In this document: piece after piece, positions 100 through 55,735 of the stretch
Layout of the letters: every line of letters starts with the position of its first letter
How positions within the stretch are numbered: the first letter of the stretch is position 1
Source: Patescibacteria group bacterium
Lineage (GTDB): Bacteria; Patescibacteriota; Microgenomatia; UBA1406
DNA: 64,000 nucleotides
Assembly (NCBI GenBank): GCA_041665145.1
Contig: JBAYJK010000002.1
Span: 232,339-296,338 of the forward strand
Reading direction: 5' to 3'
Notes under the pieces: generated by a model
Seen by the model: the letters and a program-made list of their open reading frames with translations, nothing else
What the model was told of the DNA's origin: nothing
Database searches by the model: none
Translations under genes and position numbers: made by a program

Positions 100-126
100 T
101 TATAAATATTTAATTAATAATTACTA

Positions 127-151
127 CTTTAGACTTTAGACTTTAGACTTT
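127..151. repeat. heptamer tandem repeat AGACTTT x3 upstream of ndk
   Basis: Perfect copies at 131-137, 138-144 and 145-151. Related TACTTT words occur at 160-185 and 4130-4172. Confidence 0.9.
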
Positions 152-190
152 CCTTTATACCTTCTACTTTTTACTTTAGACTTAACTATG

Positions 191-1477
191 TTACCCAAGT
201 ATATCCCCGAGTTCAAGTTCGTTTTTCTTCAACGGTCCAAGCACGGTAATGTTCAGATTCTTCTCAATAAACAAGTCTTTTGCAAGTGAGACTATCTCGT
301 CACGTGTTACTGTATCAATTGAGGAAATTACTTCTTCCGGGGTTTTGTAGGCTCCGAAAAGTAATTGTTCGCCAGCAAAAAAGTTAGCTACGCTATATGA
401 ATCTTCAAGTGATAGTAGCACGTGCCCTTTTATCATTTCCTTCGTTCGGGTTATCTCTTCTTCGGTCACCTTTCCCTGGGCGATACTCTTATGCTCAGCG
501 ACAATTACCGACAATGCCTGCTTGATTTTATGAATATCTGTACTCACGCCTGCCTGGGTGGAAATGTGCCCCACATCGTCATATTGATCTTTTGACGTGT
601 ATATATAGTAGCATAGACCTCTTTTTTCCCGAACTTCGTTAAATAATCGGGAAGACATACCTCCTCCCAAGAGACGAGAAAGAACGGATAGTATATACCG
701 TCGCTTATCAAAAAACGAGAACGCCCGATAACCGATTACAAAATGAGTTTGTTGCGTTTTTTTATAAACCACGTTAAGAACTGGTTTCTTTTGGTTTTCC
801 GACACCGGTTCGTGTCCCGAAACTTTTCCGCCTGTCCAGTGCGAGAAAATGTCGTGGACCGAATTTACATGCTTCACTTGCTCTACGTCTTTCCCCAGGT
901 TTCCCGCAAGAGCCACAATAGCGTTGTGACTGTGGTAGTATTTTTGAAGCCACCCGACAAAATCGCTTCTTTGCATCGAATTGACAGTTTGAGGCTTACC
1001 AGCAATGTCAAAACCAAGCGGGTTTTTCGGGTATAGTTGCTTCTCGTAGAGCTCGCCCACCTTGCGCTGAGGCTCATCTTCATACATATGTATCTCTTCT
1101 ACAATAACGCCCTTCTCGCGCTGTATTTCATCTTCCTTTAATAGCGGTTGAGTAACAGTCTCATACAATATTTTCCCTGCTTTTAATAAATGTGCTGTGG
1201 GCAGCTTTATCCAAAAACCCGTATATTCACGACTAGTGAATGCATTAGAGACTCCTCCAACACCTTCTATTGCCGAAGCGAGGCTAAAAGGTGTGGGGAA
1301 ACTCGGAATTGATTTTGATGTTGCGTGCTCTAAAAAATGAGATATACCATTGTTCTTTTCATCTTCGTATCGTGAACCAACTTTCACCATCACTAACATC
1401 GTAATTGAGCCGAATGTTTCCGTATTTATACTTATGACAGGTAGACCATTCGTCAGTTTATTGAGCGTGATGTTCAT
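191..1477 (-). CDS. M16-family (insulinase/pitrilysin-like) zinc peptidase
   Basis: 428-aa ORF. The inverted zinc motif HxxEH is present as HFLEH near the N-terminus. The length fits a two-lobed M16 peptidase. The start ATG shares one nt with the leuS stop (TAATG). Confidence 0.88.
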   Translation of the reverse strand: MNITLNKLTNGLPVISINTETFGSITMLVMVKVGSRYEDEKNNGISHFLEHATSKSIPSFPTPFSLASAIEGVGGVSNAFTSREYTGFWIKLPTAHLLKAGKILYETVTQPLLKEDEIQREKGVIVEEIHMYEDEPQRKVGELYEKQLYPKNPLGFDIAGKPQTVNSMQRSDFVGWLQKYYHSHNAIVALAGNLGKDVEQVKHVNSVHDIFSHWTGGKVSGHEPVSENQKKPVLNVVYKKTQQTHFVIGYRAFSFFDKRRYILSVLSRLLGGGMSSRLFNEVREKRGLCYYIYTSKDQYDDVGHISTQAGVSTDIHKIKQALSVIVAEHKSIAQGKVTEEEITRTKEMIKGHVLLSLEDSYSVANFFAGEQLLFGAYKTPEEVISSIDTVTRDEIVSLAKDLFIEKNLNITVLGPLKKNELELGDILG

Positions 1478-4107
1478 TACGATCCCTTTACAATAAAATT
1501 AATAATTTTTCCGGGAACATAGATTGTTTTATAGTTACCTGCTACATGTTTTTGTATACTCTCTTGCGCTAAAGCCGCTTGTATTATTGATTTCTCAGTT
1601 ATATCCATAGACTTGGTAACAACCGTACCGCGAAACTTTCCATTAATCTGTACCGCAACTGTAACGTCTGACTTGTTTATCTGTTTAGCGTCAGGAACCG
1701 GGAAGGTTGATAGATGGACACTTCCTGCCATTTTAAGGGTATTGCGCCAGAGATCTTCAGCAATAAATGGGGCAAACGGTGCCAGCAGTTGGACAAAAAC
1801 TGTCGCATGCTGTTTCTGGATCTTTCCACCAAGCTCCCAGACATTCAAAAGTTTCATGAGCGTAGCAATTGCAGTATTAAATTTAACGTTCGTTATATCA
1901 CTCTCAATTTTCGATATCGACATTTGAAGCTCTGAAACAACCTTTACATCCTCATCATCAACAGCATTTGCTATCTTAGCAGGATTATTGAATATCTGAT
2001 AAATTCGCCTCAGAAATCGCGCTGACCCTTGAAGAGCTTGGGTTGACCAGGCAATCTCCATATTGAATGGAGCCATGAACATCTCATAGACCCTGAGTGT
2101 GTCAGCACCATACTCTTTAACAACATCATCAGGGTTAATTACGTTGCCAAGCGATTTGCTCATCTTGCGGTGGTCTGTTGCAAGAACCATACCTACATTG
2201 CGCAGTCTCAAAAAGGGCTCCCTGAAGCCTAAAATACCCAAGTCATTGAGAACATGCACCCAAAACCGCGCATAAAGTAAATGAAGCACAGCATGCTCGG
2301 CACCACCCAGATACCAGTCGACCGGCAACATTTCTGCACCCTTCAATTCGGCTTTCCACTTCTCAACAAGATCACCGGGCGAGGCAACCTCGCCCCTACG
2401 TACTTGCCCGTTTTGTGCAAATTTCAAAAAATACCAACACGACCCTGCCCAGTTGGGCATCGTATCAGTTTCACGACGAGCAGTTGAACCGCATGCCGGG
2501 CATGGGGTCTCGAGCCATTTTTCACCCGCTTGCACGAGGGGCGACTCTCCATTTTCTGTCGGCTCATAGTGACTCATGTATGGCAGCTCCAGTGGCAGTG
2601 TCCCTTCATTGATCGGGTACCAGCCATAGCTCTTCTCTAGAGTACTTTGATCTAGTTTGGTAGTATTTTGATACTTTTTTTGAAAGCTTTTTCCCTCAGC
2701 TGTTGTGAACCACGAATTCTTTTCCGTGGCACACTTTTCGCAATAAACGAGTGGAATCGGTTCTCCCCAATAACGTTGTCGGGAAAAAATCCAATCGCGC
2801 AAATGAAAACTGACCACCCGTTTACCCCAACCCCTTGCTTCCAAGTGATCCATCATTTTGTCTTTAGCTTTCATGATGTCAAGACCGTCGAGAAAATCGG
2901 AATTAATCATAATTCCGGATTCTTCCTGAACTTGTCTGATATCAGTTATTGGAGACGTGTCGGCATCTGACCCCTTAACCACACGCATCACCTCTATCCC
3001 GAATTCTTGCGCAAACTCAAAATCTCGTCGGTCGTGCCCGGGAACACCAACAACTGCTCCCGTTCCGAAATCTCCGAGCACGAAATCTGAAATCCATATG
3101 GGAAGCGGTTTTCCGTTAAGATTATTAACCGCGTAGAAACCCGAAAAAACACCTGTTTTCTTACGACCTTCGGCAATTCTGTCAAGGTCGGTTTTTGATA
3201 GGGCTTTCTGAATATATAAGCTCACTTTTTTATGGATTGCTTCCGTTGTTACCAGTTTTTTTTCAACCACCTTTTTAGCAAAGGGATGTTCGGGTGCTAA
3301 TACGATAAAAGTAGCACCGAAGTTGGTGTCTGGCCTTGTGGTGAAGCACGTGATCTTATCGTCGCTTCCGCGCACCTCATATGCAATATTAATTCCTTCT
3401 TTCTTACCTATCCAATTGCGCTGCATTTCCACTATTCCGTTGGGCCATTGCAGATCTTTAAGGCTATCTAACAAGCTGTTTGCATATGTGGTTATTTTGA
3501 ATATCCATTGCGGAAGATCTCGCTTTGAGATAGTTGAACCGCAACGCTCATGAGTACCATTCGGAAGCACTTCCTCTTCCGCGAGTCCGGTTTTGCAAGT
3601 TGGGCAGAAGTAAACCGAGATCTCTTTTTTAAACAGAAGTCCCAGCTTAAAGAATAATAAGAATAACTCTTGAGTTTTGCCATAGTAGGCCGGATCGGTC
3701 GTTGCAAATTCCTTCTCCCAATCGTAAGACAAACCGAGCATTTGCATTTGACGCTTGAAATTGGCAATATTTGCCGGAACCATATCCATCGGATTCTTTT
3801 TAGCCTTAATTGCTGCGTTTTCTGCCGGCAAGCCAAAGGCATCCCATCCCATCGGATGTAATACAGAGAAACCTTTCATGCGAAAATAGCGTGCCAACAC
3901 ATCTGTGCCCGTATAAATCCGAACGTGGCCTACATGCAGACCAGCGCCAGACGGATAGGGAAACATGGATAAACAGTACATCTTATTCTTATTATTCTTC
4001 AAGTCTAAAGCAGAAGGTCTAAGGTCTGAGGTTTTGTATACACCGTCTTTTTCCCACTGTTCTATCAGCTTCGACTCAAACTCTTGGGGAATATATTTAT
4101 GTTCCAT
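1477..4107 (-). CDS. leuS: leucyl-tRNA synthetase
   Basis: 876-aa ORF with the class I signatures HVGH (HIGH motif) and KMSKS. It has a long CP1/editing insertion and the typical LeuRS N-terminus (PYPSGxLHVGH). Confidence 0.97.
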   Translation of the reverse strand: MEHKYIPQEFESKLIEQWEKDGVYKTSDLRPSALDLKNNKNKMYCLSMFPYPSGAGLHVGHVRIYTGTDVLARYFRMKGFSVLHPMGWDAFGLPAENAAIKAKKNPMDMVPANIANFKRQMQMLGLSYDWEKEFATTDPAYYGKTQELFLLFFKLGLLFKKEISVYFCPTCKTGLAEEEVLPNGTHERCGSTISKRDLPQWIFKITTYANSLLDSLKDLQWPNGIVEMQRNWIGKKEGINIAYEVRGSDDKITCFTTRPDTNFGATFIVLAPEHPFAKKVVEKKLVTTEAIHKKVSLYIQKALSKTDLDRIAEGRKKTGVFSGFYAVNNLNGKPLPIWISDFVLGDFGTGAVVGVPGHDRRDFEFAQEFGIEVMRVVKGSDADTSPITDIRQVQEESGIMINSDFLDGLDIMKAKDKMMDHLEARGWGKRVVSFHLRDWIFSRQRYWGEPIPLVYCEKCATEKNSWFTTAEGKSFQKKYQNTTKLDQSTLEKSYGWYPINEGTLPLELPYMSHYEPTENGESPLVQAGEKWLETPCPACGSTARRETDTMPNWAGSCWYFLKFAQNGQVRRGEVASPGDLVEKWKAELKGAEMLPVDWYLGGAEHAVLHLLYARFWVHVLNDLGILGFREPFLRLRNVGMVLATDHRKMSKSLGNVINPDDVVKEYGADTLRVYEMFMAPFNMEIAWSTQALQGSARFLRRIYQIFNNPAKIANAVDDEDVKVVSELQMSISKIESDITNVKFNTAIATLMKLLNVWELGGKIQKQHATVFVQLLAPFAPFIAEDLWRNTLKMAGSVHLSTFPVPDAKQINKSDVTVAVQINGKFRGTVVTKSMDITEKSIIQAALAQESIQKHVAGNYKTIYVPGKIINFIVKGS

Positions 4108-4115
4108 AAAAAATA

Positions 4116-4124: not shown

Positions 4125-4171
4125 TTTTACCTTATACTTTCTACTTTCAGTTCTACTTTGTGCTTTTTACT

Positions 4172-4450
4172 TTAAGCTTTCTGCTTCTCTTCTCTCGGTT
4201 TCGCTTCAGTGACCAAAATATTGCGCTCAGTTTCGCCTATTTTCATCGGCTTTCCATTCAGAACTGCAATAGCCTGCTCCGCGAGCTCGGGGGTACTCAT
4301 AGTCACAAAAGCAAACCCTCTCGATTTACCCGAATCACGATACCGAACCAAATTTATCTCGTCAACTTCACCCACCGTCATAAAGACTGTTTTAATATCA
4401 TCTTCTACAGCCCCATACGGAAGATTCCCGACAAATAATCTATTTCCCAT
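4172..4450 (-). CDS. RRM-type RNA-binding protein
   Basis: RNP-2 (LFVGNLPY) and RNP-1 (SRGFAFVTM) motifs are present. I prefer the start at MGNRLFVGNL (4450); the ORF track start is 4459. The 5' end overlaps the stop of the upstream gene. Confidence 0.88.
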   Translation of the reverse strand: MGNRLFVGNLPYGAVEDDIKTVFMTVGEVDEINLVRYRDSGKSRGFAFVTMSTPELAEQAIAVLNGKPMKIGETERNILVTEAKPREEKQKA

Positions 4451-5474
4451 GCATATCACCCCCTTTCTTTGTATGTTTTTTATGTCTCATAAGTCTTATA
4501 AGACTTATGAGACTAACAAGACTAATAAGTCCCATAAGACCCATGAGTCTTATGGGAAAAGCCCAGAATTCAGTAGTTGCGTAAATCTTCTTATCGGCAA
4601 ATTCGAATGTCATGGCAGCTGAGACTGTATACTTACCGAAAAACCAGCCTTTGAATACAGTGCTTACCGGAATCTTGCACCGCTTGCATTCCGGAAATTC
4701 CTCTTGAACCATTAACCTTTGTGAGTTTTTGAGCACATTTGCAGGAAACAGTTTTTTCGTTTCACTTTTGCCTAATGACGAAACGAGTTTAAGAGTTACT
4801 TGTGGTGTTACCATAAATTGTCCGGTGTTGGCAATTTTAACAACCACCGGGACTTCATCATTGCTCTCGACGATGGTGAATGTTTTTCCAAATAGCGATA
4901 ACGAATATCTCGGTATAACTTGCAATTGAGCTATTTTACCTTCGATCGGCATATTTCCTGAGTTAGTAACGCTCACTAAAATATTTGCCCCGATATATGA
5001 CCTCCCCAACCCCGCTGTAGTTTGAGTAACCGGCGGATCTGCCACAAAAAACAACGTATAGTAATAGTCGCCCTCGGGAGCATTTTCCACCGCCCTGATT
5101 TTAAGCAGCGCTTGTGTTTTCTCACGGGATTTGAGTACAAATTTATCTCCCAACCCCATTTGGCTGTTCTCCAAAGAGAATCTGAGCGGTCCTTCCGCTT
5201 TATCCTTAAAAACTCTTCCTCCCTGGTCGTCTGATGGTTCAAAAGAAAGAATGCTTGTGGAAAACACCATAGTATCACCGTTGTTTTTCAAATCAATAGC
5301 CTGCAGCAACGATTTACCCGGCTTAATAACTATCTCTACCTGTGGTGGATAGACGGATACATGGAGTTTTTCGGCATTGGCAGTGGTAGATAGTTGATGG
5401 TAGATAGTTAATAGTAAAATACCCACACAAACGAGCCTCATAACTCTGATTTGTGCGGATCTATTCAATAACAT
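4440..5474 (-). CDS. secreted surface protein with C-terminal membrane anchor, DUF916/DUF3324-like architecture
   Basis: 344 aa. It has an N-terminal signal peptide (…LSTTANA), beta-rich domains and a C-terminal TM followed by a basic tail (RLMRHKKHTKK). Length and layout match ORF 11877..12905. The family call rests on pattern resemblance only. Confidence 0.5.
   Translation of the reverse strand: MLLNRSAQIRVMRLVCVGILLLTIYHQLSTTANAEKLHVSVYPPQVEIVIKPGKSLLQAIDLKNNGDTMVFSTSILSFEPSDDQGGRVFKDKAEGPLRFSLENSQMGLGDKFVLKSREKTQALLKIRAVENAPEGDYYYTLFFVADPPVTQTTAGLGRSYIGANILVSVTNSGNMPIEGKIAQLQVIPRYSLSLFGKTFTIVESNDEVPVVVKIANTGQFMVTPQVTLKLVSSLGKSETKKLFPANVLKNSQRLMVQEEFPECKRCKIPVSTVFKGWFFGKYTVSAAMTFEFADKKIYATTEFWAFPIRLMGLMGLISLVSLISLIRLMRHKKHTKKGGDMHGK
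4484..4513. repeat. 30-nt perfect palindrome inside the C-terminal anchor codons of ORF 4440..5474
   Basis: gtctcataagtcttataagacttatgagac equals its own reverse complement. A second hairpin, cccataagac-ccatga-gtcttatggg, lies about 20 nt further on. Confidence 0.9.
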
Positions 5475-5533
5475 GTCAGTTTGACTATTAACTCTAAACT
5501 ATCAACTCTCAACCCTCAACTATTAACTATCAA

Positions 5534-6295
5534 CTAATACTTAGGTACTGCAATAAAATTAATAACTGTCTGGTAAGTGCCGGTTGCTTGAGCCCCGTCG
5601 ATATTCGCTAGAAATGTAACAGTTGAAATACGGTTTTTCGCGGCTATAGTAGAGGACATGAAGGTAACCGGACTATGTCCGGCTTCACGCGAAGCAAAAG
5701 GACGGTAGTATGTGTTATTTAAAAAATCTGCAGTTACGTCATGTCCTGATGCGTTGTACCCGAATCCCGTCGCAGCAGTTGACGTCCAGACATTCGCACT
5801 GGTTCGAGAACATGCTTGGATCCCTCCGTTACAAGTTGTGTCAGGAATAAAATGTAAGGAAAGCGTCCGGAGAGGATGGTCTTCTATGACTTGGACGTCA
5901 TAGCCACGACTCGGATTAGTAATTGTTACATCTAACGTCGGCAAAGGAGTCGGAAAAGTGTTCGGAATTAATGTCCCGAAATTTATAAGAGTTGATGAAA
6001 TTTCGAATTCAAAAGGCATGGTGGTAAAAATATATTGGAAACCCACTTTTACCACAAATCCCGATGAGGTAAACCGGTCGGCAAATGTTTGTCCGAGTGA
6101 AGTGGTCATGCTGTAATTCGGGGAATCATGCCGACCGCTTCCTATATTAAGGTTGCCGAAAATTATATTATAGTTTGTTGAGTTCATGTTCACCGCATAC
6201 ACTTCAGTTGATAGTTGAGAGTTGAGAGTTAAGAGTAATACGAAGACAATACTTACTCGTATGAGCATGGAGACTAAGTTATTGATTAAATTCAT
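5534..6295 (-). CDS. secreted WxL-domain-like surface protein
   Basis: 253 aa with a signal peptide (…STEVYA). The C-terminal region carries W-containing and terminal motifs (ANVWTSTAATGFGY … GTYQTVINFIAVPKY). These resemble the two WxL-type motifs and parallel the C-terminus of ORF 10409..11854. Confidence 0.45.
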   Translation of the reverse strand: MNLINNLVSMLIRVSIVFVLLLTLNSQLSTEVYAVNMNSTNYNIIFGNLNIGSGRHDSPNYSMTTSLGQTFADRFTSSGFVVKVGFQYIFTTMPFEFEISSTLINFGTLIPNTFPTPLPTLDVTITNPSRGYDVQVIEDHPLRTLSLHFIPDTTCNGGIQACSRTSANVWTSTAATGFGYNASGHDVTADFLNNTYYRPFASREAGHSPVTFMSSTIAAKNRISTVTFLANIDGAQATGTYQTVINFIAVPKY

Positions 6296-6391
6296 GAATT
6301 AAGTATCCGCCCTGCCAACTACTATCTACCATCTACTAACCACTATCAACCATTTACTATCTACTCTAAACTAGAGACTATCAACCCTTAA

Positions 6392-7078: not shown

Positions 7079-7188
7079 ATGAATTCAGTATACACAAAAT
7101 TAAGTTACAAGTTAAAAGCCTAAAGTTCTAAGTAATGTGATGCATATAGACCGTGGTATTTGTTTTTTCCGCATGTCATATTCAATAC

Positions 7189-9410: not shown

Positions 9411-9524
9411 ACTTCCAGTTTTCAATTTACAATTTTCAATCAATTTTTAAGGTTCAGTTTTTAACTGTAACTTCCCGGTATTGAAAACTGAATGAAAATT
9501 GAGAACTATAAATTGAAAATTGAG
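9411..9524. terminator. composite palindrome between convergent comEC-MBL and PaaX-like genes
   Basis: cagttttcaat (9415) and caattttcaat (9431) can pair in nested fashion with attgaaaactg (9479) and attgaaaattg (9512). Confidence 0.45.
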
Positions 9525-33472: not shown

Positions 33473-33500
33473 GTAAGGGCGCGGCGTGACGCGCCCGTCT
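33473..33500. repeat. REP-like hairpin R1 just after the LamG stop
   Basis: GTAA-GGGCGCG-gcgtga-CGCGCCC-GTCT, a 7-bp GC stem with a 6-nt loop. It lies 4 nt after the stop at 33469 and upstream of the rayT-like ATG at 33510. Confidence 0.6.
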
Positions 33501-33509
33501 TGCACAAAT

Positions 33510-37627: not shown

Positions 37628-37630
37628 AAT

Positions 37631-37753
37631 ACAGTTCTTATTTCTTAGTTCACAGTTCTCAAAGATTTCTCAAGTGACAGTTCTTAAGCAATTTGTTTGA
37701 TAATTAAGAATTGAGAACTCTTTAAGAACTGAAAAGTGTGAACTAAAAACTGT
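37631..37753. terminator. long imperfect palindrome between convergent genes
   Basis: The left arm acagttcttatttcttagttcacagttctcaaag pairs (with bulges) with ctttaagaactgaaaagtgtgaactaaaaactgt. It is built from GTTCT/AGAAC words and lies between the stops at 37627 (+) and 37757 (-). Confidence 0.45.
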
Positions 37754-37756
37754 ATG

Positions 37757-42812: not shown

Positions 42813-42836
42813 AAACTAAATTAAACTACTAATAAT

Positions 42837-42960
42837 AAGTTGTAACTTGTAAGTTGCAAGTTGTATTAAAGTCGTAATGATTAAGTTGTAAGTTTTAACC
42901 AGTCGTTTCAACTTACAACTTCAAGCTTTATTACAACTTACACCTTACGACTTTCAACTT
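42837..42960. repeat. ~124-nt intercistronic palindromic repeat, copy A (trxB-gdh spacer)
   Basis: Words AAGTTGTAA/TTACAACTT form two imperfect arms. It is about 93% identical (9 differences by eye) to 43997-44119. Its last 23 nt supply the trxB C-terminal codons EVESRKV and the stop. Confidence 0.85.
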
Positions 42961-43990
42961 CATCTAAATATTTCTCAATTTCTAATTCTGCTGCAACTCC
43001 CATTCCTGCAGCTGTCGCTGCTTGCCGGTAGACATGATCAACGCAGTCTCCTGCAGCAAATATTCCATCTACCGAGGTCGCATACTGAAACTTTTTGTCA
43101 AATTTTTCCCGTGATACACCCTCCGGTAATTCAAATGCAACCCTGGCGCCTGTATATATGTATTGCTTCGGATCAAGAAGCACACCCGAGCCCTCAAGAA
43201 ATTTAGTTGCCGGCGTATGACCAATAGCCACAAATACTCCGTCCAAGGGTAAATCTCGAAGCTCGAAGCTCGAATTTCGAAGTTGTTTTAGATCTTCGGA
43301 TTTTAGTGCTTGTTTCGGATTTCGGTTTTCGGATTTCGGAATTTTTAACTTTATTCCCGTTACTTTCTCTTCTCCGACTATTTCCAAAACCTCAGCGTTA
43401 AGAATAACTTCTATCTTCGGATGTTTTAATACTCTCTCCTGCATAATTTTTGATGCCCGAAAACTGTCCCTTCGATGAATTACATAGACTTTTGTCGCAA
43501 AACGTGTGAGTACCAATGCATCCTCCATGGCGGAATCGCCACCACCCAGAACCGCGACCACTTTATTTCTGAAGAAAAATCCATCGCACGTCGCACATGC
43601 CGAGACTCCTTTGCCTCGAAGTTTCTGCTCGGACGGTAACCCGAGCCATCGGGCATCTGCACCTGTCGCAACCAAAATAACCCGTGCAGAATACATCGTA
43701 CCACTGCTTACTATAACATTTTTGGCTCTTTTGTCTGACTCAATCTTTTGTACAGAATCGGAAATAAACCGCGTTCCAAATCGCTCTGCCTGTAATTTCA
43801 TTTCCTGGACAAGCTCAGGTCCAAGTATCCCTTTCGAGAAACCCGGATAGTTTTCTACATCTGAAGTAAGTGTTAATTGCCCTCCAGGAACAGAGCCTTC
43901 AATAACTAACGGTTTTAAATTTGCGCGGGCTGCATATGTTGCTGCCGCAAGTCCTGCCGGTCCTCCGCCGATGATGATAAGGTTTTCCAT
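42938..43990 (-). CDS. trxB: thioredoxin-disulfide reductase with ~22-aa in-frame insertion
   Basis: GGGPAG FAD motif, redox-active CATC, the GGGDSA NADPH motif and GVFVAIGHTP. The insertion PKSENRNPKQALKSEDLKQLRNSSFE lies between VTGIKLK and LPLDGVFVAIGH. Confidence 0.95.
   Translation of the reverse strand: MENLIIIGGGPAGLAAATYAARANLKPLVIEGSVPGGQLTLTSDVENYPGFSKGILGPELVQEMKLQAERFGTRFISDSVQKIESDKRAKNVIVSSGTMYSARVILVATGADARWLGLPSEQKLRGKGVSACATCDGFFFRNKVVAVLGGGDSAMEDALVLTRFATKVYVIHRRDSFRASKIMQERVLKHPKIEVILNAEVLEIVGEEKVTGIKLKIPKSENRNPKQALKSEDLKQLRNSSFELRDLPLDGVFVAIGHTPATKFLEGSGVLLDPKQYIYTGARVAFELPEGVSREKFDKKFQYATSVDGIFAAGDCVDHVYRQAATAAGMGVAAELEIEKYLDEVESRKV
43251..43352 (-). repeat. ~100-nt imperfect-palindromic element inserted in frame in trxB
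   Basis: aatctcgaagctcgaagctcgaatttcgaag … TTTCGGA/TTTCGGT/TTTCGGA/TTTCGGA (43313-43340) … tttttaacttt. It has the same orientation and the same end sequences as the gdh element. Confidence 0.85.
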
Positions 43991-43996
43991 GCTTTA

Positions 43997-44119
43997 AAGT
44001 TATAACTTGTAAGTCGTAAGTTGTATTAAAGTCGTAATAATTAAGTTGTAGTTTTAATCAGCTGTTTCAACTTACAACTTCAAACTTTATTACAACTTAC
44101 ACCTTACGACTTTCAACTT
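43997..44119. repeat. ~123-nt intercistronic palindromic repeat, copy B (csoR-like-trxB spacer)
   Basis: Direct repeat of 42837-42960. It starts 7 nt after the trxB ATG position and ends at the stop of the CsoR-like gene. Confidence 0.85.
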
Positions 44120-44363: not shown

Positions 44364-44418
44364 AATTGCTTGTTACTTTAAACTTTTAACTTTTTACTTA
44401 CCCCGACTTTGTCGGGAT

Positions 44419-44771: not shown

Positions 44772-46190
44772 ATGGTCAGATCAAAAACTGCTCCTGCAGA
44801 GCCTGCTAAAGAAGAGATGCTCGACGTCTCTACCCTTATTAACACGCCCGAGGACAAACGTATTGTGGCAGAACCAGAAGTTAAGAGTCCAGAGTTAATG
44901 GTTAATAGTTCAAGAGTTAATGAGACACCGAGTGTAGCTGAGGGACAACAAACTCCCAGTTCCAAACTACCCGCTTCGCAGCGAGGCGAGCCAACTACTA
45001 ATTACCAATCACCAGCTGCTCGACCGACAGGACCGGATGAAGGTATGTTTGAACGGCGCATTCAAGACGATCTTCGAAGCGCTTTTGAAGTTAAAGGATT
45101 TTTGGATATCGTAAATACAACATATGGATTTTTGCGACCGGGCTTTGCCCCATCAAGTGACGATATCTACGTTTCCATGTCACAGATCCGCAAATTTCAG
45201 CTTCGCCAAGGTGATCAGGTAGTCGGGCTCGCTCGACCACCGAAGCAAAACGAGAAATATCATGGTCTTTTGAAAATTACAAAAATAAATGATCTTCCCC
45301 TGCAAGGCGATACTATTAAACGTCGTAAATATGAGGAACTTACTCCTATTTACCCAGACAGACAGATTACGCTTGAGTATGATACAAAAATCGTGTCTAC
45401 CCGTATTATTGACCTTCTCTCTCCTATTGGTTATGGTCAACGAGGCATGATCGTATCTCCTCCAAAAGCAGGAAAGACAACCTTTTTGAAAGAAATTGCA
45501 CAAGGTGTGATCACCAACAACCCGAACTCGCACCTTATTGCCATTCTTATCGGCGAGCGACCTGAGGAAGTAACCGATATGAAACGAAACATAAAAGGTG
45601 AAGTGGTTGCTTCGAATTTTGACGAGTCGCCTGAACATCAAATCGCTGTTGCTGAACTCGGTTTGGCACGAGCGAAACGGTTGGTTGAAATAGGAAAAGA
45701 TGTTGTTATTTTGCTTGACTCAATAACACGTCTTGCCCGAGCATACAATCTTTCCGTTGGTCCGTCTGGTAAGACCTTGTCCGGAGGATTTGACCCGGCA
45801 GCACTCTTCCCCGCCAAAAAGTTCTTAGGAGCAGCGAGAAACTGTGAAGAAGGCGGTAGTTTGACCATCATTGGTACTGCGCTTATCGAAACAGGTTCGC
45901 GCATGGATGATCTTATCTACGAAGAATTCAAGGGTACCGGCAACATGGAGGTACATCTTGAAAGAAAACTTGCCGAAAAACGCATTTATCCGGCAATCAA
46001 TATAGAAAGATCAGGCACACGACATGACGAGTTGTTGCAAAACGACGAATTGTTTAAGAAAATTACAACACTTCGACACATGTTGCTGCTTCTCGACGAA
46101 GAACAGCGTTTAGTATCACTTATCGACAAGCTCGGCAAGTCTAAGACTAACAAAGACTTCCTTGAGACGCTGAATATGGCGAAAAAGTAA
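44772..46190 (+). CDS. rho: transcription termination factor Rho with non-canonical N-terminal extension
   Basis: CSD-like RNA-binding region (GFLDIV…YGFLRP…DDIYVSMSQIRKFQLRQGD), Walker A PPKAGKT, and Q/R-loop regions. The first ~100 aa are Pro/Glu/Ser-rich rather than a Rho_N helix bundle. Confidence 0.96.
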   Translation: MVRSKTAPAEPAKEEMLDVSTLINTPEDKRIVAEPEVKSPELMVNSSRVNETPSVAEGQQTPSSKLPASQRGEPTTNYQSPAARPTGPDEGMFERRIQDDLRSAFEVKGFLDIVNTTYGFLRPGFAPSSDDIYVSMSQIRKFQLRQGDQVVGLARPPKQNEKYHGLLKITKINDLPLQGDTIKRRKYEELTPIYPDRQITLEYDTKIVSTRIIDLLSPIGYGQRGMIVSPPKAGKTTFLKEIAQGVITNNPNSHLIAILIGERPEEVTDMKRNIKGEVVASNFDESPEHQIAVAELGLARAKRLVEIGKDVVILLDSITRLARAYNLSVGPSGKTLSGGFDPAALFPAKKFLGAARNCEEGGSLTIIGTALIETGSRMDDLIYEEFKGTGNMEVHLERKLAEKRIYPAINIERSGTRHDELLQNDELFKKITTLRHMLLLLDEEQRLVSLIDKLGKSKTNKDFLETLNMAKK

Positions 46191-46266
46191 ATTTAAGCTT
46201 AAATATTAAAGCTTAAAGATTAATTGAAGCCTAAACCTTAAAGCTTGAAGTTTCCTTGTTGCTTTG
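46191..46266. terminator. AAGCTT-word palindromic spacer between convergent rho and the SpoU gene
   Basis: tttaagcttaaa (46193-46204) is a perfect 12-nt palindrome. Further TTAAAGCTT words follow, with AAGCTT cores at 46196, 46210 and 46242. Confidence 0.4.
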
Positions 46267-46839: not shown

Positions 46840-47383
46840 GATTTAATTGTAAACTGAAAACTGTAAACTGAAAATTACTTATCGCATAGGCGATAAGTAT
46901 CCCTATTATAGCACCCGCAAGCACATCCCCTGCATAATGTACCCCCAAATACAGGCGCGAGAATGATATCAGGCCGGCTAATGTATAAAATAGCGCTTTC
47001 TTCTTCCTATGGTAGAAAGTTAACAACGTAGCAGCAAAAAAGGATGTTGCCGCGTGGGTTGAAGGAAACGAATAATCCGCGGGTTTGGCAATCGCATTCG
47101 CAAAAGACGGACGGGAACGATGAACAACCGGTTTAATAACAAAACTGGTGAGTACCGCAGTGACAATCAAGCCACCCAGGAAAAACAGGACAAACTCATG
47201 ATGCTTTTTTTCTTCAATGACAATAAGTATTATTCCCAACACTATCCAGATAACAGAAAATGATCCTACGGCAGAAAAGAACATAAAAAAAAGATTAGTT
47301 ATATAGGCGTGAGGTAAAAGATTATAAAGAAATTGAGTAATTAACTGATCAAGAATAAGCATAATACAACCATTGACTATCAA
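46769..47383 (-). CDS. PAP2-family phosphatase (undecaprenyl-diphosphatase/lipid phosphatase-like)
   Basis: PAP2 motifs RSRPS, FPSTHAA and SRLYLGVHYAGDV. The last ~35 codons read through a word-repeat spacer and overlap the SpoU gene start by 71 nt. Confidence 0.85.
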   Translation of the reverse strand: MIVNGCIMLILDQLITQFLYNLLPHAYITNLFFMFFSAVGSFSVIWIVLGIILIVIEEKKHHEFVLFFLGGLIVTAVLTSFVIKPVVHRSRPSFANAIAKPADYSFPSTHAATSFFAATLLTFYHRKKKALFYTLAGLISFSRLYLGVHYAGDVLAGAIIGILIAYAISNFQFTVFSLQLNHGVCTISQKRGHTKKSEHSKRKR

Positions 47384-47401
47384 CTAGTGACTATTAACTA
47401 T

Positions 47402-50400
47402 TCACGACTGGTTCTTCGAATCATCCATCTTCATTTCCTGCACCGGGAGCTCTGCTGTTACCGCCGGTTCTTTAGCTGTCGCCGGCAATTCTACATACTC
47501 GATTGCTTTTTCTTCAAGCATTTTCTTGAGTTCTTCCTCTTTCAAGAGGGCTTCACTTACTTCCTGAGCAGCTGCAAGCTTGGCTTTCAAGTACATGGCA
47601 ATGTCCTGAATAGTCATATCGGTCAACATAAAGAACGGAATAATATCGGAGACGGCAGTAAGTCCTTGCGCTTTAATTTCTTCGTTTGCTGACACGAGCT
47701 TGTTCAAGACGTTGGTGAGTATTACCGCATCCCGTTGTACCCAGACAATGCGAGAAGTTATTTCTTTGGTAAATGGTACTTCTCCATTTGTATAGTGTTC
47801 TATCCACATGCGTTTGAGCTCTTCATATTCGTCAATACCCATAGTTTTGGGTGTCGCGATCATTTTTCCAGAATCAAGTATTTTTGACCTCAAATTCACT
47901 CCCTTATCGAGCGGTTTCTTTCCGCGATCGGCCAGCGCAGCCGGTCGAAGTGCTTGTTGCACGAGCTGTTGTGTTTCCTTAACAGTTGTTTTCTCATTAG
48001 TTTTCTCTGTAAGCTTCTCCAGCATTCTTTCAACAGTTTCTTTAGTGGTTTCTGTTGCTTTTACGAGCGTTGAGATTACGTTTGCCGGCTGCTGTGTTGT
48101 GACGACCTGTGGAATTTTTTGTATAACCGCCTGTATAACATCCGCTTTCATTCCCGATGCTTGTGCAATGCTTTCCACAGCCACCTGGTCCACGGCAACG
48201 GCGGCAAGAGCCGATTGTAATGTTTGCACCAGTCCTTCGGGCTTCTGGTGCGTTTCTGCAGCTATGGACTGCAAGGTGGTTACCCCCGCCGCTTCGGTGA
48301 GCGTTGAATTTACTTTTTCAATTACATCCTTCACTATATCTGTTGTTGTGTTTTGAGATGTCGCAATACCGGTAAGAACTTCTTTGGAAAGTGCGCTTTC
48401 CGTTATTTTTTTAACAACTTGGGTAACCGTTTCTTTTTCTATATTGGTCTTCTCGGAAAGCACAGTCAGCATGTCTCGGGGTGTTGTTGTCGCACTGACC
48501 TCTGATAATGTCGTAAGAATACGTGCAACATCCGGTGTCGAGACATGTGTGATCTCAGACACTCTGGACAACAGTTGTTGATCGTTAGAGACACCCGTTG
48601 TCCATAGGTCCAGAATTTTTTGCACGTTGGAAACGGTAGATTTGGTTTCGGTTGAAACTGCGTCTGTCGTATTCATCAGCGACAATTCCTGATGAGATAA
48701 CTGTTGGATTTTTTCCTGGACAGCCTCGGTTGACTTATTGACCAATTGCTTATATTCCTGTGCAGACTGAGTGTTGGATTGCTCAGCCTTAACGATTGTT
48801 GTTTGTGCGCGGGCAATATCTGAAAGCTTTTGAATTTGGATATCCATGCGTTTCAAAATACTTTCGAATTCCTGCCTGTTGATGCCTTGATTTATAACAA
48901 CGGTTTTTGCTGACATGCCTGCAAATGACGAAACGTCAGCGGGCGAAGTAACTTCGCCCCTACTTGTGTTTTCATTGAATTGCGATTCTTGACTCGCGAC
49001 TCGCGACTCGCGACTCTTGGTCTGGACGTCTTCGATTTCCTGTTCGAGTTGCATTGTTTGCTCTTTAACCCCCTCGGCTTGCTGTTCTACATCCACAAAC
49101 TGTTCCTCGACTTTGTTACCCATTGCCTGCTGAACTTCTTCAACCGCCCCCATCTTGTTCTGGATTTCTTGTGCAGCAGAAACCTTCGCCTTCAAATATG
49201 CTGCGATATCCTGCATACTCATATTACCGAGCATGAAGAATGGAATAACATCGGCAACTTCTTGCAATCCTTCGGCACGAACTTCTTCGTTATCGGAAAT
49301 GAGCTTGTTAAGCGTATTGTTTAACGAGACCACATCTTTCTCAACCCAATCTTTACGCGTTTTAATTGTGTCACTGAGTGGTATCTCTCCCTTTTCATAA
49401 TGGTCGGTCCACATCTTCTTAACTTCCTCGTATTCATCTATCGACATTGTCTGTGGCCGAGCGATAAGCTCTGCGGGAGCGCTTACTTTCTGTGTAGCCG
49501 GCTTAGACAGCACTTCTTGTGCCACTTTCTTGACCTGATCGATATTGGTTTTTGTTTGCGATGCAATTCGTTCTGCTACCGCTGTTGTCTGTACATGCTC
49601 GGCAGCTTTTGTAAGAATTGTTGTTGCTTTGTCTGTAGTGATTCCTGCCGTTTGTGCTACCGATTTGATAACCTCCGACTGCTTCGACTCCTCGACCGCT
49701 TTCGGTATTGATTGCAACACTTGTGACGTTTGAGAATCCGAAACATGTGCATTATTGGCAATGTTGTTAACAACCTTCTTGTCACCTACAACGTCGTTTA
49801 CCATGGATTGCGTGATGTTTTTGACCTCGTTCTGGGATATGTTCACGTGTTGTGAAATATTCTGAATATTCGTTACCGTTTGTGCCTTATTCTGGGCAAA
49901 TTGCTGAATCGCCTGACGCACGCTTGTTGCCGTACTTGTTGTCGCATTGAGGAATTGTTGTGCATTCACATCACCCTTAACTGCCCGTTCGGACATTTCG
50001 GTCTTCAGTTTAATAAATTGAGACCGTTCTTCCTTACTTTCAGCTGCCATCGGATTGCGCATCTTTTCCATAAACTCACGCACGTATTCTTTTCGGTCTG
50101 TCTTTGTTTCAAACCGGGCAATATCCGAAAGCTTTTCGATCTGGACATCCATACGCCGAGTAATCTCGGACACATCCATTTGTTTCATATTTTGCATGTT
50201 TTCGATTGCCGATGTGGCACGCATACCTTGTGAGACTGCCTGCTCGTGCGGTATCTGCATTTTCTGTGAGAAGGATTGTTTTGGAATATTCGCAGGTCCT
50301 ATCGGTCCCGGTGTTGGTCCGTGACTCTGTTGTTCCAACATGTTTAAGAGTATGTTTTTCATGGCGTAAATACCTTCGCAACAATAATCTCTGAATATTC

Positions 50401-51475: not shown

Positions 51476-51502
51476 ACATAATTTTCAGTATGAAGTCATG
51501 AA

Positions 51503-51591
51503 GTCATTGCGAGCGCAGCGAAGCAATCCAGAATAAGTACAAGAATAATTACGAGATTGCTTCGGCCGGTTCTATCGAGCCTCGCAATGAC
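51503..51591. repeat. nested inverted repeat between argS and the VirB6-like gene
   Basis: GTCATTGCGAG (51503-51513) pairs with CTCGCAATGAC (51581-51591). The inner CGAAGCAATC (51519-51528) pairs with GATTGCTTCG (51555-51564). Confidence 0.75.
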
Positions 51592-51596
51592 AATTT

Positions 51597-53399
51597 TTAC
51601 ATTCTTTCGACAGTCCGGATTCCCAAAAGATACAAGCCATTTTTGAGAACTTGTGAGACTGCTTGAGTAAGATTTATACGAAGTTCCATTTGCTCCCCAC
51701 TTAATATGGAATGTTTGTTGTAAAACGTATTAAACGTCTGGGCAAGTTCGTTTAAATATACCGCAACAAAATGAGGGTCATAACTCTTTGTCGCTGTTTC
51801 AACAACTTCAGGAAATTTGGCAAGAGCTTTAAGGATAGCGAGTTCTTCGTTGTTGTATTCGTATGCATGTGTCGCGGGTCTCGCGTCTTGGGTCTCGCGT
51901 CTTGGTTCCTTAGACTCGTGACTCGTGACTCGTGACTCAGGACTCTTTCTTAACACACTCTTACATCGTGCGTAGGTATATTGCAAATACGGACCAGAAT
52001 CTCCGCTCATTGAAACGCTTGAGGTAATATCAAATGCTAAGTATTTAAATGCACTCATTTTAAGAAACGAATACTTGACTGCTGCTAATGCGATCGCATC
52101 AACATCACTTTCTGGTAAAACTGATTTATTCTCCACAATTACCTTGGCAATTGCTTTGTGTGCTTCATCGAGAATCAACTCTGCTGTAACCACCTGACCT
52201 TTTCGTGAAGACATTTTCCCGCTTTTCAAACCGACAAACTCATATGCGTTGTGGTATTGCTTTCCCTTGAACAATTCCGGGTTCAAAAGCTCTTCAACTT
52301 TGAAGGTTACCTCGAAAAAACTTTTTTGCTCTACCGCGACGTTATGAACACACAAATCTATGTGGCCAAAGTCTTTAAACTCCATTTGTGCAAGACCAAG
52401 TTCTTTACCCTCGTACGTCGGCAGCCCTTCACTGTTAAGAAAAACCCTCGTATCGAGTTTATACGGCTCGCCGTTAAAAATAATCGCTCCCTTACTTTTG
52501 ACAAGAATTCCTTTTTTAATAGCTTCTTCGTTTTGTACTTTGGCAACTTCCAATGTTTCGCTTTCAAGATATTCCCGCTCGAAATGACTATCAAGACGAT
52601 CATAAATTTGGTGAAACTTTTCCAAACTCCACTTTACTCCGAGCTTCCACAATTCATGAACCTCTCCTTCCTTTTCCGTATATATCTTCTTGTTAACTTC
52701 GATGATTTCTTTTTTATTTTCCTCACTTTCTTCAAAGGCTTTTGCCCCCTCAACATAACATTCGGATAATAATTTGACACGTGCATCGGGCGAATCAAGA
52801 TTCGCCCCTACAACGTCCCCGTTTCGAATTTCGAATTTCGAATTTCGAATTTTCTTTTGCAACGCCCACACACATTTGGCAACATGCATTCCAACGTCAC
52901 CCTGGTAGTTCGTCCGTATGACTGTGGCTCCCGATGCCTCTAGAAGTCTGGCAATGGACACTCCTAAACAAAAATTTCTCAAATGTCCAATATGCATGAC
53001 TTTAAACGGGTTCGGATGCCCGTATTCGACCATAATTTTCTTATTCTTCAGCTCGGAATTCTGCCCATAGTTATCATTCTGAGCAAGAACCTCCTGTACA
53101 ACCTTGCTGTACGCTTCAGGCTTCAGGAAGAAATTTATGTATCCCGGCTTTGCTACCTCCACTCGAGCTACATGAAGGGTTGAACCCTTCATGCCATTAG
53201 AAAAAGATAGGTTTAGCTTGTCAACAAGAGCTGCAGCGAGTTGCATTGGATTCGTCTTGACGTGACGGGCTAAAATCATGGCAATATTCGTCGAATAATC
53301 TCCGTGAGCAACTTCAGGAGACACAAAGACCTCTATTAAAGAATGAAATTCTGCATCAACAACCTGTTTTAATAGATCAATTATCTGCTGTTTGAACAT
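51597..53399 (-). CDS. argS: arginyl-tRNA synthetase with three in-frame repeat insertions
   Basis: 600 aa with the HIGH motif as MHIGH and the KMSKS-equivalent GKMSSRKG. The N-terminal Arg_tRNA_synt_N-like region and a C-terminal DALR-like anticodon-binding region ending in M are present. Confidence 0.94.
   Translation of the reverse strand: MFKQQIIDLLKQVVDAEFHSLIEVFVSPEVAHGDYSTNIAMILARHVKTNPMQLAAALVDKLNLSFSNGMKGSTLHVARVEVAKPGYINFFLKPEAYSKVVQEVLAQNDNYGQNSELKNKKIMVEYGHPNPFKVMHIGHLRNFCLGVSIARLLEASGATVIRTNYQGDVGMHVAKCVWALQKKIRNSKFEIRNGDVVGANLDSPDARVKLLSECYVEGAKAFEESEENKKEIIEVNKKIYTEKEGEVHELWKLGVKWSLEKFHQIYDRLDSHFEREYLESETLEVAKVQNEEAIKKGILVKSKGAIIFNGEPYKLDTRVFLNSEGLPTYEGKELGLAQMEFKDFGHIDLCVHNVAVEQKSFFEVTFKVEELLNPELFKGKQYHNAYEFVGLKSGKMSSRKGQVVTAELILDEAHKAIAKVIVENKSVLPESDVDAIALAAVKYSFLKMSAFKYLAFDITSSVSMSGDSGPYLQYTYARCKSVLRKSPESRVTSHESKEPRRETQDARPATHAYEYNNEELAILKALAKFPEVVETATKSYDPHFVAVYLNELAQTFNTFYNKHSILSGEQMELRINLTQAVSQVLKNGLYLLGIRTVERM
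51877..51946 (-). repeat. tandem arrays inside argS: 14-mer x2 + heptamer x5
   Basis: GTCTCGCGTCTTGG at 51877-51890 and 51891-51904. GACTCGT x3 (51912-51932) is followed by GACTCAG and GACTCTT. The region encodes KSPESRVTSHESKEPRRETQDARP. Confidence 0.85.
52788..52811 (-). repeat. REP-like hairpin R5 inside argS
   Basis: GGGCGAATC-aa-GATTCGCCC-CTAC. The minus strand reads GTAGGGGCGAATCTTGATTCGCCC and encodes VGANLDSP. Confidence 0.8.
52822..52849 (-). repeat. heptamer array TTTCGAA x4 inside argS
   Basis: Four perfect copies, one substitution away from the TTTCGGA arrays in gdh and trxB. It encodes IRNSKFEIRN and lies 10 nt from REP R5. Confidence 0.85.
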
Positions 53400-53405
53400 G
53401 TGACA

Positions 53406-53414
53406 ATTATAGCA
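53406..53414 (-). promoter_or_regulatory. extended -10 box TGCTATAAT 6 nt upstream of the argS ATG
   Basis: The minus strand reads ttttTGCTATAATtgtcacATG. The identical 9-mer precedes leuS at 4116-4124, 8 nt from that ATG. Confidence 0.5.
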
Positions 53415-53581
53415 AAAAGTCGCGAGTCACGAGTCTAAGAGTCTAAAGGTCTGAATGTCTGATTGTCTGAAAGTCTTGTAACAATAATAGCCAGGCTGCG
53501 AAGATACCAATTTTCGGCGACTTGGGGAAACTAAGGGGCCCCCACGGAGCGTAGAAAACTGGGTATCGAGCTGCCTACAAA

Positions 53582-54472: not shown

Positions 54473-54494
54473 GGTACCTGATAATGTATACTTG

Positions 54495-55313: not shown

Positions 55314-55316
55314 CAA

Positions 55317-55616
55317 TTACTGTTGAAAAGTTCCGGAGGGGGTTGTTACTTCTGGAGTCGGCACATCCGTCGGCACAACAAATGTCGTCGGTATGCGGAA
55401 TTGGGGTGTCGGAGGTAAATCAGATGCTCGAGAGTTGGTTTTTGGTCCCTGAAAAAGCAAGAATGTGAAACTCCCTAAAACAACAAACAATGTAAGAAGC
55501 ACTCCCACCATCGCTTTTGTTGCAATTCCTACTCCGTTATTTTGATGTCCGGGTTGCTGAGCGTGTTCAAGAGAGTTAATAAGATACTGCGGGAGCGGCG
55601 TGTAATTCATACACAC
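55317..55616 (-). CDS. small single-pass membrane protein with Pro/Thr-rich tail
   Basis: 99 aa with the TM MVGVLLTLFVVLGSFTFLLF. It lies downstream of the VirD4-like ATPase on the same strand. Confidence 0.5.
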   Translation of the reverse strand: MCMNYTPLPQYLINSLEHAQQPGHQNNGVGIATKAMVGVLLTLFVVLGSFTFLLFQGPKTNSRASDLPPTPQFRIPTTFVVPTDVPTPEVTTPSGTFQQ

Positions 55617-55657
55617 ACGATAACAAAATACAGAGAAAAGTCAACATCGGAAACATA

Positions 55658-55735
55658 AGTACAAAGCTAGAATATTGAAGACAGAATAAAGCTTAAAGAC
55701 TGAAAATTGAAGCTTTAAGCTTAAAACTTTGTACT
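55658..55735. repeat. intercistronic hairpin built from AAGCTT/TGAA words
   Basis: AGTACAAAG (55658-55666) pairs with CTTTGTACT (55727-55735). The interior is aaagcttaaagactgaaaattgaagctttaagcttaaaa. Confidence 0.6.

Follow-up and report, generated by a model that had tools for sequence, protein, structure and literature searches.

Heptanucleotide arrays in the spacers and housekeeping genes of a Patescibacteria genome

Tandem heptanucleotides are said to make up the short tandemly repeated repetitive (STRR) sequences of cyanobacteria, and Rickettsia palindromic elements reportedly lie in frame inside conserved protein genes, at positions that tolerate them. Arrays of seven-nucleotide units are described here from a 64,000-nt stretch of contig JBAYJK010000002.1 (positions 232,339 to 296,338 of the forward strand; hereafter the window, with positions counted from its first nucleotide), which belongs to the metagenome-assembled genome (MAG) of a Patescibacteria group bacterium (GCA_041665145.1) of the candidate phyla radiation (CPR). 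A sequence-only reading of the window had found almost every spacer to be built from its own private word of 5 to 8 nt and had known of no described system to explain this. Described systems do exist, namely, heptanucleotide long simple sequence repeats (LSSRs), cyanobacterial STRRs, and Xanthomonas GGGAATC arrays (PMC4692102; PMC4679880). No report linking heptanucleotide arrays to Patescibacteria was found in the literature.

As relayed in PMC4679880 and PMC4692102, Mrazek et al. (2007) found heptanucleotide LSSRs to be over-represented and proposed polymerase slippage as their source; in the same accounts, these repeats are mainly intergenic and phylogenetically sporadic, and several words may occur in one genome. 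The GGGAATC arrays of Xanthomonas and the GGGGAYT arrays of Nostoc are heptameric G-rich simple sequence repeats (Rehm et al. 2015, PMC4692102). Those of Xanthomonas mostly contain four units, a preference ascribed to G-quadruplex formation, and frequently come in close inverted pairs that could fold as stem-loops. Intergenic DNA holds about 90% of them, toward the 3' end of the preceding gene and rarely between divergent genes, and a minority are intragenic; they are not tied to one gene class, and no function was found for them (PMC4692102). In marine Beggiatoaceae, Cyanobacteria, and Bacteroidetes, direct repeats of TAACTGA are found on the upstream side of start codons, only a few nucleotides away, and a Shine-Dalgarno sequence is often absent (MacGregor 2015, PMC4679880). 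Orientations of this word that carry stop codons are excluded from open reading frames (ORFs), and the occasional arrays within ORFs encode the peripheries of proteins (PMC4679880). Palindromic elements of a further kind are the repetitive extragenic palindromic (REP) sequences and REP doublets forming hairpins (REPINs), which occur with REP-associated tyrosine transposases (RAYTs) (Bertels and Rainey 2011, PMC3116915).

Seven-nucleotide arrays in the window

With moderate confidence, we read the window as part of a CPR genome that has accumulated heptanucleotide arrays of the same kind as bacterial LSSRs and cyanobacterial STRRs, by the route proposed in the last section. A tandem-repeat search of the window with Tandem Repeats Finder (TRF), of the type that the sequence-only reading had proposed, returned 64 rows, half of which (32) had period 7 and a further 10 of which had period 14 or 21. 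The self-similarity of intergenic DNA (2,680 nt) exceeded that of dinucleotide shuffles at lags of 7, 14, and 21 nt only (z-scores of 8.8, 7.7, and 6.0, respectively). By both measures, the period is specifically 7 nt, which narrows the 5-to-8-nt range first given. Perfect heptamer arrays, defined by at least 14 matching lag-7 positions, numbered six (26, 26, 26, 31, 31, and 31 nt) in the window and zero in 50 shuffles. Under a stringent definition (at least 12 of 14 lag matches, compared with 100 composition-preserving block shuffles), 17 arrays of period 7 were seen where 0.35 were expected (shuffle maximum, 3); periods 4 to 6 and 9 to 12 were at expectation, and period 8 gave 2 arrays versus 0.02 expected. 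Head-to-tail 7-nt units are in excess, and the excess is specific to that unit length, as it is in LSSRs and STRRs. All of the sites listed in the sequence-only reading contained repeated short words except the one at 58143, where only about 1.5 copies and no array were found.

Period-7 TRF rows were present at a density of 5.0 per 10 kb in the window versus 0.29 in 1.33 Mb from 80 control genomes, a 17-fold difference; the controls were taken from a TrxB scan, were relatives of at most 53% identity from many phyla, and served as controls only. The control richest in period-7 arrays was an Actinomycetota MAG (L036), with five rows in 21 kb. It is scarcely credible that the arrays are a chance or compositional by-product of AT-rich spacers or an artefact of assembly. 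Some word repetition is expected in short AT-rich spacers, but the margin over shuffles, which the sequence-only reading had made its own check, the enrichment at period 7, and the low density in the control genomes all count against chance. Against an artefact, three independent assemblies (ENA, JGI, and Logan) concur, with 0 to 1 differences over 21 kb and with array lengths unchanged.

The G+C content of the window is about 43%. The sequence of its arginyl-tRNA synthetase (ArgRS) is the same as that of an NCBI protein named "Patescibacteria group bacterium," and the nearest named relatives of this protein are from Roizmanbacteria and Dojkabacteria. That identity rules out a cyanobacterial origin, which STRRs proper would have; the host is a Patescibacteria MAG and not a heterocystous cyanobacterium, a difference that touches the name STRR only. 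In the protein collection, no relatives had an ArgRS identity between 70% and 100%, and three loci (L001 to L003) were identical to the window, with no array polymorphism among them. Syntenic relatives, with 59 to 70% ArgRS identity, conserve the order of argS, the membrane protein gene, PAP2, spoU, rho, csoR-like, trxB, and gdh. When orthologous spacers were compared, a further check proposed by the sequence-only reading with conserved structure as its expectation, heptamer arrays were essentially absent from the syntenic relatives (L084 to L086) and the spacers of the latter were much shorter. The trxB-gdh spacer measures 125 nt in the window versus 30 to 44 nt in these relatives, and the csoR-like-trxB spacer measures 127 nt versus 18 nt or a gene overlap. 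It follows from this comparison that the arrays are recent, lineage-specific additions, by which spacers of about 20 to 40 nt have grown to about 125 nt. A leftward extension of the window consisted mostly of one giant gene and contributed no arrays.

Placement and structure of the spacer arrays

Spacers were scored as array bearing at a lag-7 z-score of at least 3.5. Twelve of the 19 spacers reached this value, all of them among the 14 that lie downstream of at least one gene, and none of the 5 divergent spacers did (12/14 versus 0/5; hypergeometric, P of ~0.002). "Almost every spacer" was therefore an overstatement (12/19). Intergenic DNA makes up 4% of the window yet contains about half of the arrays, which are thus predominantly intergenic, as LSSRs are. 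The earlier picture of the spacers, as nonrandom patchworks in which a single word is repeated both directly and inverted, was borne out.

The most common architecture consisted of two inverted runs of one word, with about four units each, that form long imperfect A/U-rich hairpins. Such hairpins had been described between convergent or tandem genes, and the folds there reached z-scores of -5 to -7 relative to shuffles. Two 124-nt hairpins of the AAGTTGT/ACAACTT family flank trxB on the minus strand, one in the trxB-gdh spacer (42837..42960; z of -6.3 for slice 42813-42962) and the other in the csoR-like-trxB spacer (43997..44119; z of -7.0 for slice 43991-44125). The inverted GATAGTT/AACTATC arrays at 5383..5537 (minus strand) fold at -47 kcal/mol (z of -5.3 for slice 5388-5537), with nine G-U pairs on the sense strand, and the 3' arm of this hairpin is coding, contributing to the signal peptide of ORF 4440..5474. 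The same word family recurs as GATAGT/AACTCTC around the start of ORF 5534..6295 (6200..6391, minus strand; TRF), where the signal-peptide stretch LLLTLNSQLST comes from the 3' arm and a 150-nt slice showed no significant fold (z of -0.7). It recurs again as an AACTATT array (47368..47405, minus strand; TRF and self-comparison of the window) that spans the 18 nt separating the membrane-protein and PAP2 genes. Between convergent genes, where no strand was assigned, TRF found a TTTTCAA/TTGAAAA hairpin at 9411..9524 (z of -5.4 for slice 9405-9530), a CAGTTCT/AGAACTG hairpin at 37628..37756 (z of -5.1 for slice 37625-37760), and, between rho and spoU, AAGCTTA arrays at 46191..46266 (period 7, 8.4 copies; lag-7 z of 5.2). 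The core of the AAGCTTA word is palindromic, and the fold at this last site was not significant. Inverted arrays based on AAGCTT at 55658..55735 (minus strand; lag-7 z of 5.0) form a weaker hairpin (z of -2.9 for slice 55640-55766).

A minority of loci carry direct arrays that end 9 to 30 nt from a start codon, all on the minus strand. An AAAGTCT/AAAGTAG array (words in mRNA sense) at 121..185 (TRF period 7, 8.6 copies; lag-7 z of 6.0) stops about 30 nt short of the ndk start codon. The AAAGTAG/AAAGTAT array at 4125..4186 (TRF; spacer lag-7 z), between an RRM-protein gene and probable leuS, shares 73% identity over 73 nt with the array at 111-183 and is followed by TGCTATAAT and then ATG. An AAAGTTA array at 44373..44401 (TRF) precedes the csoR-like start codon by 9 nt, and a TTTTCAG/TTTACAG array (sense) at 46843..46876 (TRF) follows a small terminator-like hairpin and lies 10 nt upstream of the spoU start. 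The unit of the array at 53415..53476 (TRF; z of +2.4) drifts from CGCGACT to CGTGACT and then to 8-nt units, upstream of TGCTATAAT and the argS start. Folds of direct arrays were less structured than shuffles (z of +1.6 for 101-190 and +2.4 for 53400-53549). Direct arrays had been placed just upstream of promoters, and the arrays indeed adjoin start codons or -10 boxes.

The TGCTATAAT sequence, an extended -10 element, was observed at 4145-4171 and 53393-53420. Because it ends 7 to 10 nt before the probable leuS and argS start codons, its position suggests that the two mRNAs are leaderless or have a very short leader. A repeat of a different type was found at 4486-4544, directly upstream of the RRM-protein gene; its period of 9/18 nt is in codon phase, and it encodes the hydrophobic C-terminal tail (LMGLMGLISLVSLISLI) of ORF 4440..5474, which places it outside the heptamer class.

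The placement of the arrays bears on the explanation that they are selected RNA-level elements. The hairpins would then end or stabilize transcripts or be processed by RNase III between cistrons, and the direct arrays would serve either as leaders that stay unstructured or as platforms to which an RNA-binding protein attaches, for instance the RRM protein whose gene lies at 4172..4459. The split between gene-downstream and divergent spacers would fit such a role, as would the position of the direct arrays 9 to 30 nt from start codons, which resembles that of the Beggiatoaceae TAACTGA repeats. The sense strand also folds better in 4 of the 5 tandem-spacer hairpins of the window, two of which contain many G-U pairs. 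On the other side, arrays are also found inside ORFs, and the syntenic relatives have the same operon layout with no arrays; therefore, the arrays are not required. Terminator-like sites were at shuffle level in a consensus scan (17 versus 17.9), and none coincided with a heptamer hairpin. The heptamer hairpins are not canonical intrinsic terminators; their stems are long and A/U rich, not short and G+C rich. The comparable Xanthomonas arrays have no regulatory role that was found (Rehm et al., PMC4692102). A promoter consensus scan of the window showed no enrichment, no match to Rfam was obtained at gathering thresholds anywhere in the window, and no tRNA or tmRNA was found in it.

Arrays inside genes and in other genomes

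Five of the six perfect arrays lie within ORFs. The statement that several arrays are translated was upheld for the ORFs of glutamate dehydrogenase (GDH), TrxB, ArgRS, Rho, a probable leucyl-tRNA synthetase (LeuRS), and a 1357-aa membrane protein and for the two signal peptides described above. The GDH gene contains an in-frame insert at 42109..42206 (minus strand), consisting of (AAATCCG)x4.4, a linker, and (GAGATTC)x4.4 and encoding KSEIRNPKSE...FEIRDSRFEI. In alignment with 72%-identical orthologues, this insert accounts for 23 aa; comparison with solved structures places it between positions 208 and 213 of PDB 8zmu, immediately ahead of the GxGxxG motif in the second matched segment. An in-frame insert with the same arrangement and words is found in TrxB (43250..43344, minus strand) relative to L085 and L004, with a length of 21 to 33 residues, in a loop where one relative has a different insert. 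The two coding inserts are 84% identical over 50 nt, the nonrepeat linker included, and 79% identical over 34 nt.

ArgRS contains two insertions relative to eight homologues, with about 12 and 14 extra residues in two variable loops. The first is the (TTCGAAA)x4.4 array at 52818..52855 (minus strand), which encodes KIRNSKFEIRN, and the second, of 14 aa, combines (ACGAGTC)x3.7 with partly complementary GTCTCGG-type units (51871..51946, minus strand). In GDH, TrxB, and ArgRS together, variable loops gain 12 to 27 in-frame residues from the arrays. The GDH insert and the second ArgRS insert each consist of two partly complementary arrays. Coding inserts were considered as significant RNA hairpins and rejected as such, since the geometry was present and the energies were not significant (z of -0.4 to -1.5). 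The perfect-array scan also found (GCGAGTC)x3.7, in frame and in a variable loop, in the 1357-aa membrane protein (48984..49020, minus strand), a word that recurs at 51910 and 53415. A degenerate array in the N-terminal variable region of Rho (44880..44922, plus strand; TRF and homologue alignment) adjoins a lineage-specific insert of about 35 aa, and a short AGACCTT array lies near the N terminus of the probable LeuRS (4012..4035, minus strand; TRF and Pfam domains). In the unrelated secreted proteins encoded by ORFs 4440..5474 and 5534..6295, the array-encoded signal-peptide stretch is the only common segment.

The words within ORFs (AAATCCG, GAGATTC, ACGAGTC, GCGAGTC, and TTCGAAA) are free of stop codons in all frames, and many of the words in spacers (AAAGTCT, GATAGTT, AAGTTGT, and TTGAAAA) contain them; part of the apparent difference in vocabulary is explained in this way. 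The arrays inflate ORFs and give rise to odd low-complexity peptides, such as KSEIRNPKSE and FEIRDSRFEI, that should be recognized in annotation.

Two side observations concern the proteins named above. ORF 5534..6295 showed weak similarity to a CPR-type pilus protein (PamT/Pam pilin; NCBIfam, below the cut-off). The 1357-aa membrane protein (47402-51475) is 813 to 819 aa long in the syntenic relatives and has an apparent large internal duplication, with the motif ...IDEYEE.KKMW..HY..GE.P... present twice.

Words were compared among 33 window arrays in pairs more than 1 kb apart and against composition-matched chance. Identical words occurred in 6 distant pairs versus 1.18 expected (P of ~0.002), and words within one mismatch occurred in 25 versus 14.9 expected (P of ~0.008). 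Whole hairpins were also shared, and the two 124-nt copies that flank trxB are 92.7% identical, with no target-site duplication or common flank seen at either. Taken with the shared coding inserts, this does not agree with the view that the words are strictly private. The families in the window are small and have copies at several loci, with at most two to three copies per family in 64 kb. As to spacing, the GDH and TrxB inserts lie 1,138 to 1,140 nt apart and the two 124-nt hairpins 1,159 to 1,160 nt apart, such that gdh and trxB each have a hairpin just upstream of the start and an insert about 650 to 700 nt downstream of it. Segmental duplication was rejected as the source of this shared spacing, as no other similarity was found between the two segments.

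A metagenome scan for three units of TTTCGRA returned at least 120 contigs, of which 80 were examined. The G+C contents of these 80 ranged from 35% to 70%, and many of them hold several other heptamer words, again as inverted pairs. Among perfect arrays of at least 21 nt (n = 114), 26 had an inverted partner within 150 nt and 5 a direct partner. About a third of the arrays were within long open frames. Perfect runs of 21 to 27 nt (51 runs) and 28 to 34 nt (56 runs) were nearly equally frequent, and only 1 run exceeded 34 nt; the second mode fell at 31 to 33 nt, after which the distribution stopped, also for words outside the selection. A Parcubacteria-group CPR contig (L100) carried arrays in GatA and LigA. 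In alignment, the GatA array replaces existing length with no insertion and therefore points to in-place conversion. Close relatives of this contig (L207 and L208; genomes with ~86% nucleotide identity) keep synteny and do not keep the identity of the hairpins. One hairpin, F3, is identical at 85 of 87 positions (97.7%) at an orthologous spacer whose flanking genes are 73 to 86% identical, and a copy of about 80% identity lies at a nonorthologous spacer in the third genome (L208). For two other hairpin families, the occupied spacers differ between the two genomes of this lineage, and nearly every spacer there has some hairpin even though the family differs. Since whole hairpins change spacer between close relatives, some copying process exists. 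Between L207 and L209 (98.8% identical), there were no indels and no copy-number changes in any array.

These comparisons also extend the case on the RNA-level explanation. The presence of a hairpin in almost every spacer of the L100 lineage and the conservation of F3 speak for it; no preference for the sense strand was seen in that lineage, and sense-strand folding bias, suggestive in the window, was rejected as a sign of RNA-level selection. On balance, we consider it unlikely that RNA-level selection, the second rival of the reading we favor, accounts for the arrays.

The main rival, possible though rather unlikely, is that the hairpins are nonautonomous mobile palindromic elements of the REPIN, miniature inverted-repeat transposable element (MITE), or Rickettsia palindromic type, perhaps mobilized by the RAYT-like protein encoded at 33486..34163. 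Such elements would insert into spacers and, at lengths that are multiples of three, into permissive loops of genes. The near identity of the two 124-nt copies, the linker shared by the GDH and TrxB inserts, the narrow array size of about 4.5 units, and the RAYT-like gene in the window would fit this explanation, as would the greater conservation of F3 relative to its flanking genes, the F3 copy at the nonorthologous spacer, and the families found in different spacers of close relatives. Set against it are the many different words in one small genome, with so few copies per family, the absence of a visible target-site duplication or shared flank, and the GatA array, which replaces sequence without a change in length. 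The RAYT-like ORF scored 58.9 bits against NF047646, under the NCBIfam cut-off of 80, and 28.4 bits against Pfam Y1_Tnp (cut-off of 23); its spacers are 16 nt long or overlapping, and no hairpins flank it. RAYTs, moreover, recognize one specific REP, for which the REP-like hairpin at 51476-51596 would be a better candidate. A single palindromic family with many near-identical copies flanking a RAYT gene, the mark of REPs and REPINs, was not found in the 64 kb. Of the features of MITEs, inverted-repeat arms were present, a target-site duplication was not, and no autonomous partner was seen.

Further features were noted around these candidates. The hairpin at 51476-51596 lacks heptamers (z of -4.4), and its arm, GTCATTGCGAGCGCAGCGAAGCAATCC, matches an inverted pair in Bradyrhizobium (L029, 8956-8987 and 9004-9033) with 97% identity over 30 to 32 nt; by this match, it is a REP-like motif shared across phyla. 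The RAYT-like ORF, of IS200-like type, contains an in-frame 24-nt tandem repeat with PRVRPISN-type units (33628-33697). The region at 15373-36762 has a G+C content of 0.44 to 0.48, above that of the rest of the window, and contains giant ORFs of 4282 and 1747 aa and a 737-aa ORF to which the contig annotation assigns a Peptidase_S74 domain; a 55-nt unit (GGAAATGTGGGAATCGGAACAAC...) occurs 25 times in the 4282-aa and 737-aa ORFs.

Proposed origin and comparison with known systems

In the reading of the window that we favor, arrays would arise locally and be homogenized by replication slippage, a process that favors 7-nt units, and template switching from arm to arm would keep the two arms complementary, whereby each locus would acquire a word that looks like its own. 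Whole hairpins would be copied to new spacers by recombination, template switching, or mobilization in trans. Selection would filter the survivors, leaving stop-free words inside ORFs and keeping arrays out of divergent promoter spacers. Recombinational instability of longer out-of-register homology may be what ends perfect runs at about 31 to 33 nt. Any function, as transcript-end or intercistronic hairpins or as unstructured leaders, would be secondary and is hypothetical.

Several points weigh against this reading. No slippage events were seen, and copy numbers were invariant wherever they could be compared; simple slippage would not naturally yield so sharp a mode, at about 4.5 units. The conservation of F3 above that of its flanking genes suggests constraint or recent copying over neutral drift. 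The reading, moreover, draws on about 74 kb of the genome, that is, the 64-kb window and about 10 kb of flank, and on gene starts that are ORF based throughout.

The data argue against hypervariable slippage loci, a single dispersed element, and a G-quadruplex basis for the four units. The preference of the sequence-only reading for in-situ slippage over dispersed elements is not supported as stated, in that hairpin families relocate between spacers and copy number is invariant. Phase-variable contingency repeats vary in unit number, and no such variation was found among the three assemblies or between L207 and L209. Copy number is stable; therefore, the arrays are not contingency loci. The genes that bear them (argS, gdh, trxB, and rho) are housekeeping genes and not switched surface or virulence genes.

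It is conceivable, though we think it quite improbable, that heptamer-array palindromes form a distinct and widespread class defined by structure and not by sequence, in which an arbitrary 7-nt word makes up two runs, inverted to each other and about 4.5 units (~32 nt) long. If so, this class would be present in Patescibacteria and many other phyla (contigs of 35% to 70% G+C), an undescribed mechanism would copy it from spacer to spacer and into those loops of essential genes that permit it, and its length cap and inverted pairing would reflect that mechanism and not G-quadruplexes or simple slippage. CPR genomes are very small and streamlined; yet this one has tripled several spacers and has repeat-encoded loops in ArgRS, GDH, TrxB, and Rho. 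Heptanucleotide arrays can thus reshape essential proteins, and they are not confined to large-genome cyanobacteria or Xanthomonas.

The palindromic elements share only some of these traits. With REPINs, the window arrays have in common extragenic, hairpin-forming elements of about 100 nt with two inverted halves, located in spacers, and the window has a RAYT-like gene; with Rickettsia palindromic elements, the likeness is one of behavior alone, as in-frame palindromic inserts in conserved genes. In both of these known groups, one or a few families supply many similar copies, and there is no internal periodicity of 7 nt, whereas in the window the sequence differs from site to site and the periodic architecture is constant. 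The TAACTGA system resembles the direct arrays, as short heptamer arrays close upstream of start codons, and it shares with the window the exclusion of stop-bearing words from ORFs and the occasional arrays inside ORFs, but it uses a single word, almost only in direct orientation, whereas the window has four to five such loci, each with its own word. AAACTGA (46848-46874), oppositely oriented, is the window word that comes nearest to TAACTGA.

Like LSSRs and STRRs, the window arrays are over-represented tandem heptanucleotides, mainly intergenic, with several words per genome; unlike them, they are invariant in copy number, mostly in inverted pairs, and shared between loci as whole hairpins. 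The closest likeness is to Xanthomonas GGGAATC, in the 7-nt unit, the number of about four units, the inverted pairs, the intergenic position close to 3' ends of upstream genes, the intragenic minority, the lack of a tie to any one class of genes, and the avoidance of divergent spacers. Xanthomonas and Nostoc each have one dominant G-rich word, whereas the CPR arrays have dozens of A/T-rich or mixed words in which no G-quadruplex is possible, and several CPR arrays lie in essential genes. The mode of about four units is kept in words unable to form G-quadruplexes, and the published G-quadruplex explanation is therefore weakened. By analogy with these systems, the window arrays are best regarded as an already described heptanucleotide repeat phenomenon, with an architecture that is nearly that of Xanthomonas GGGAATC, in a group of organisms from which no report of it was found.

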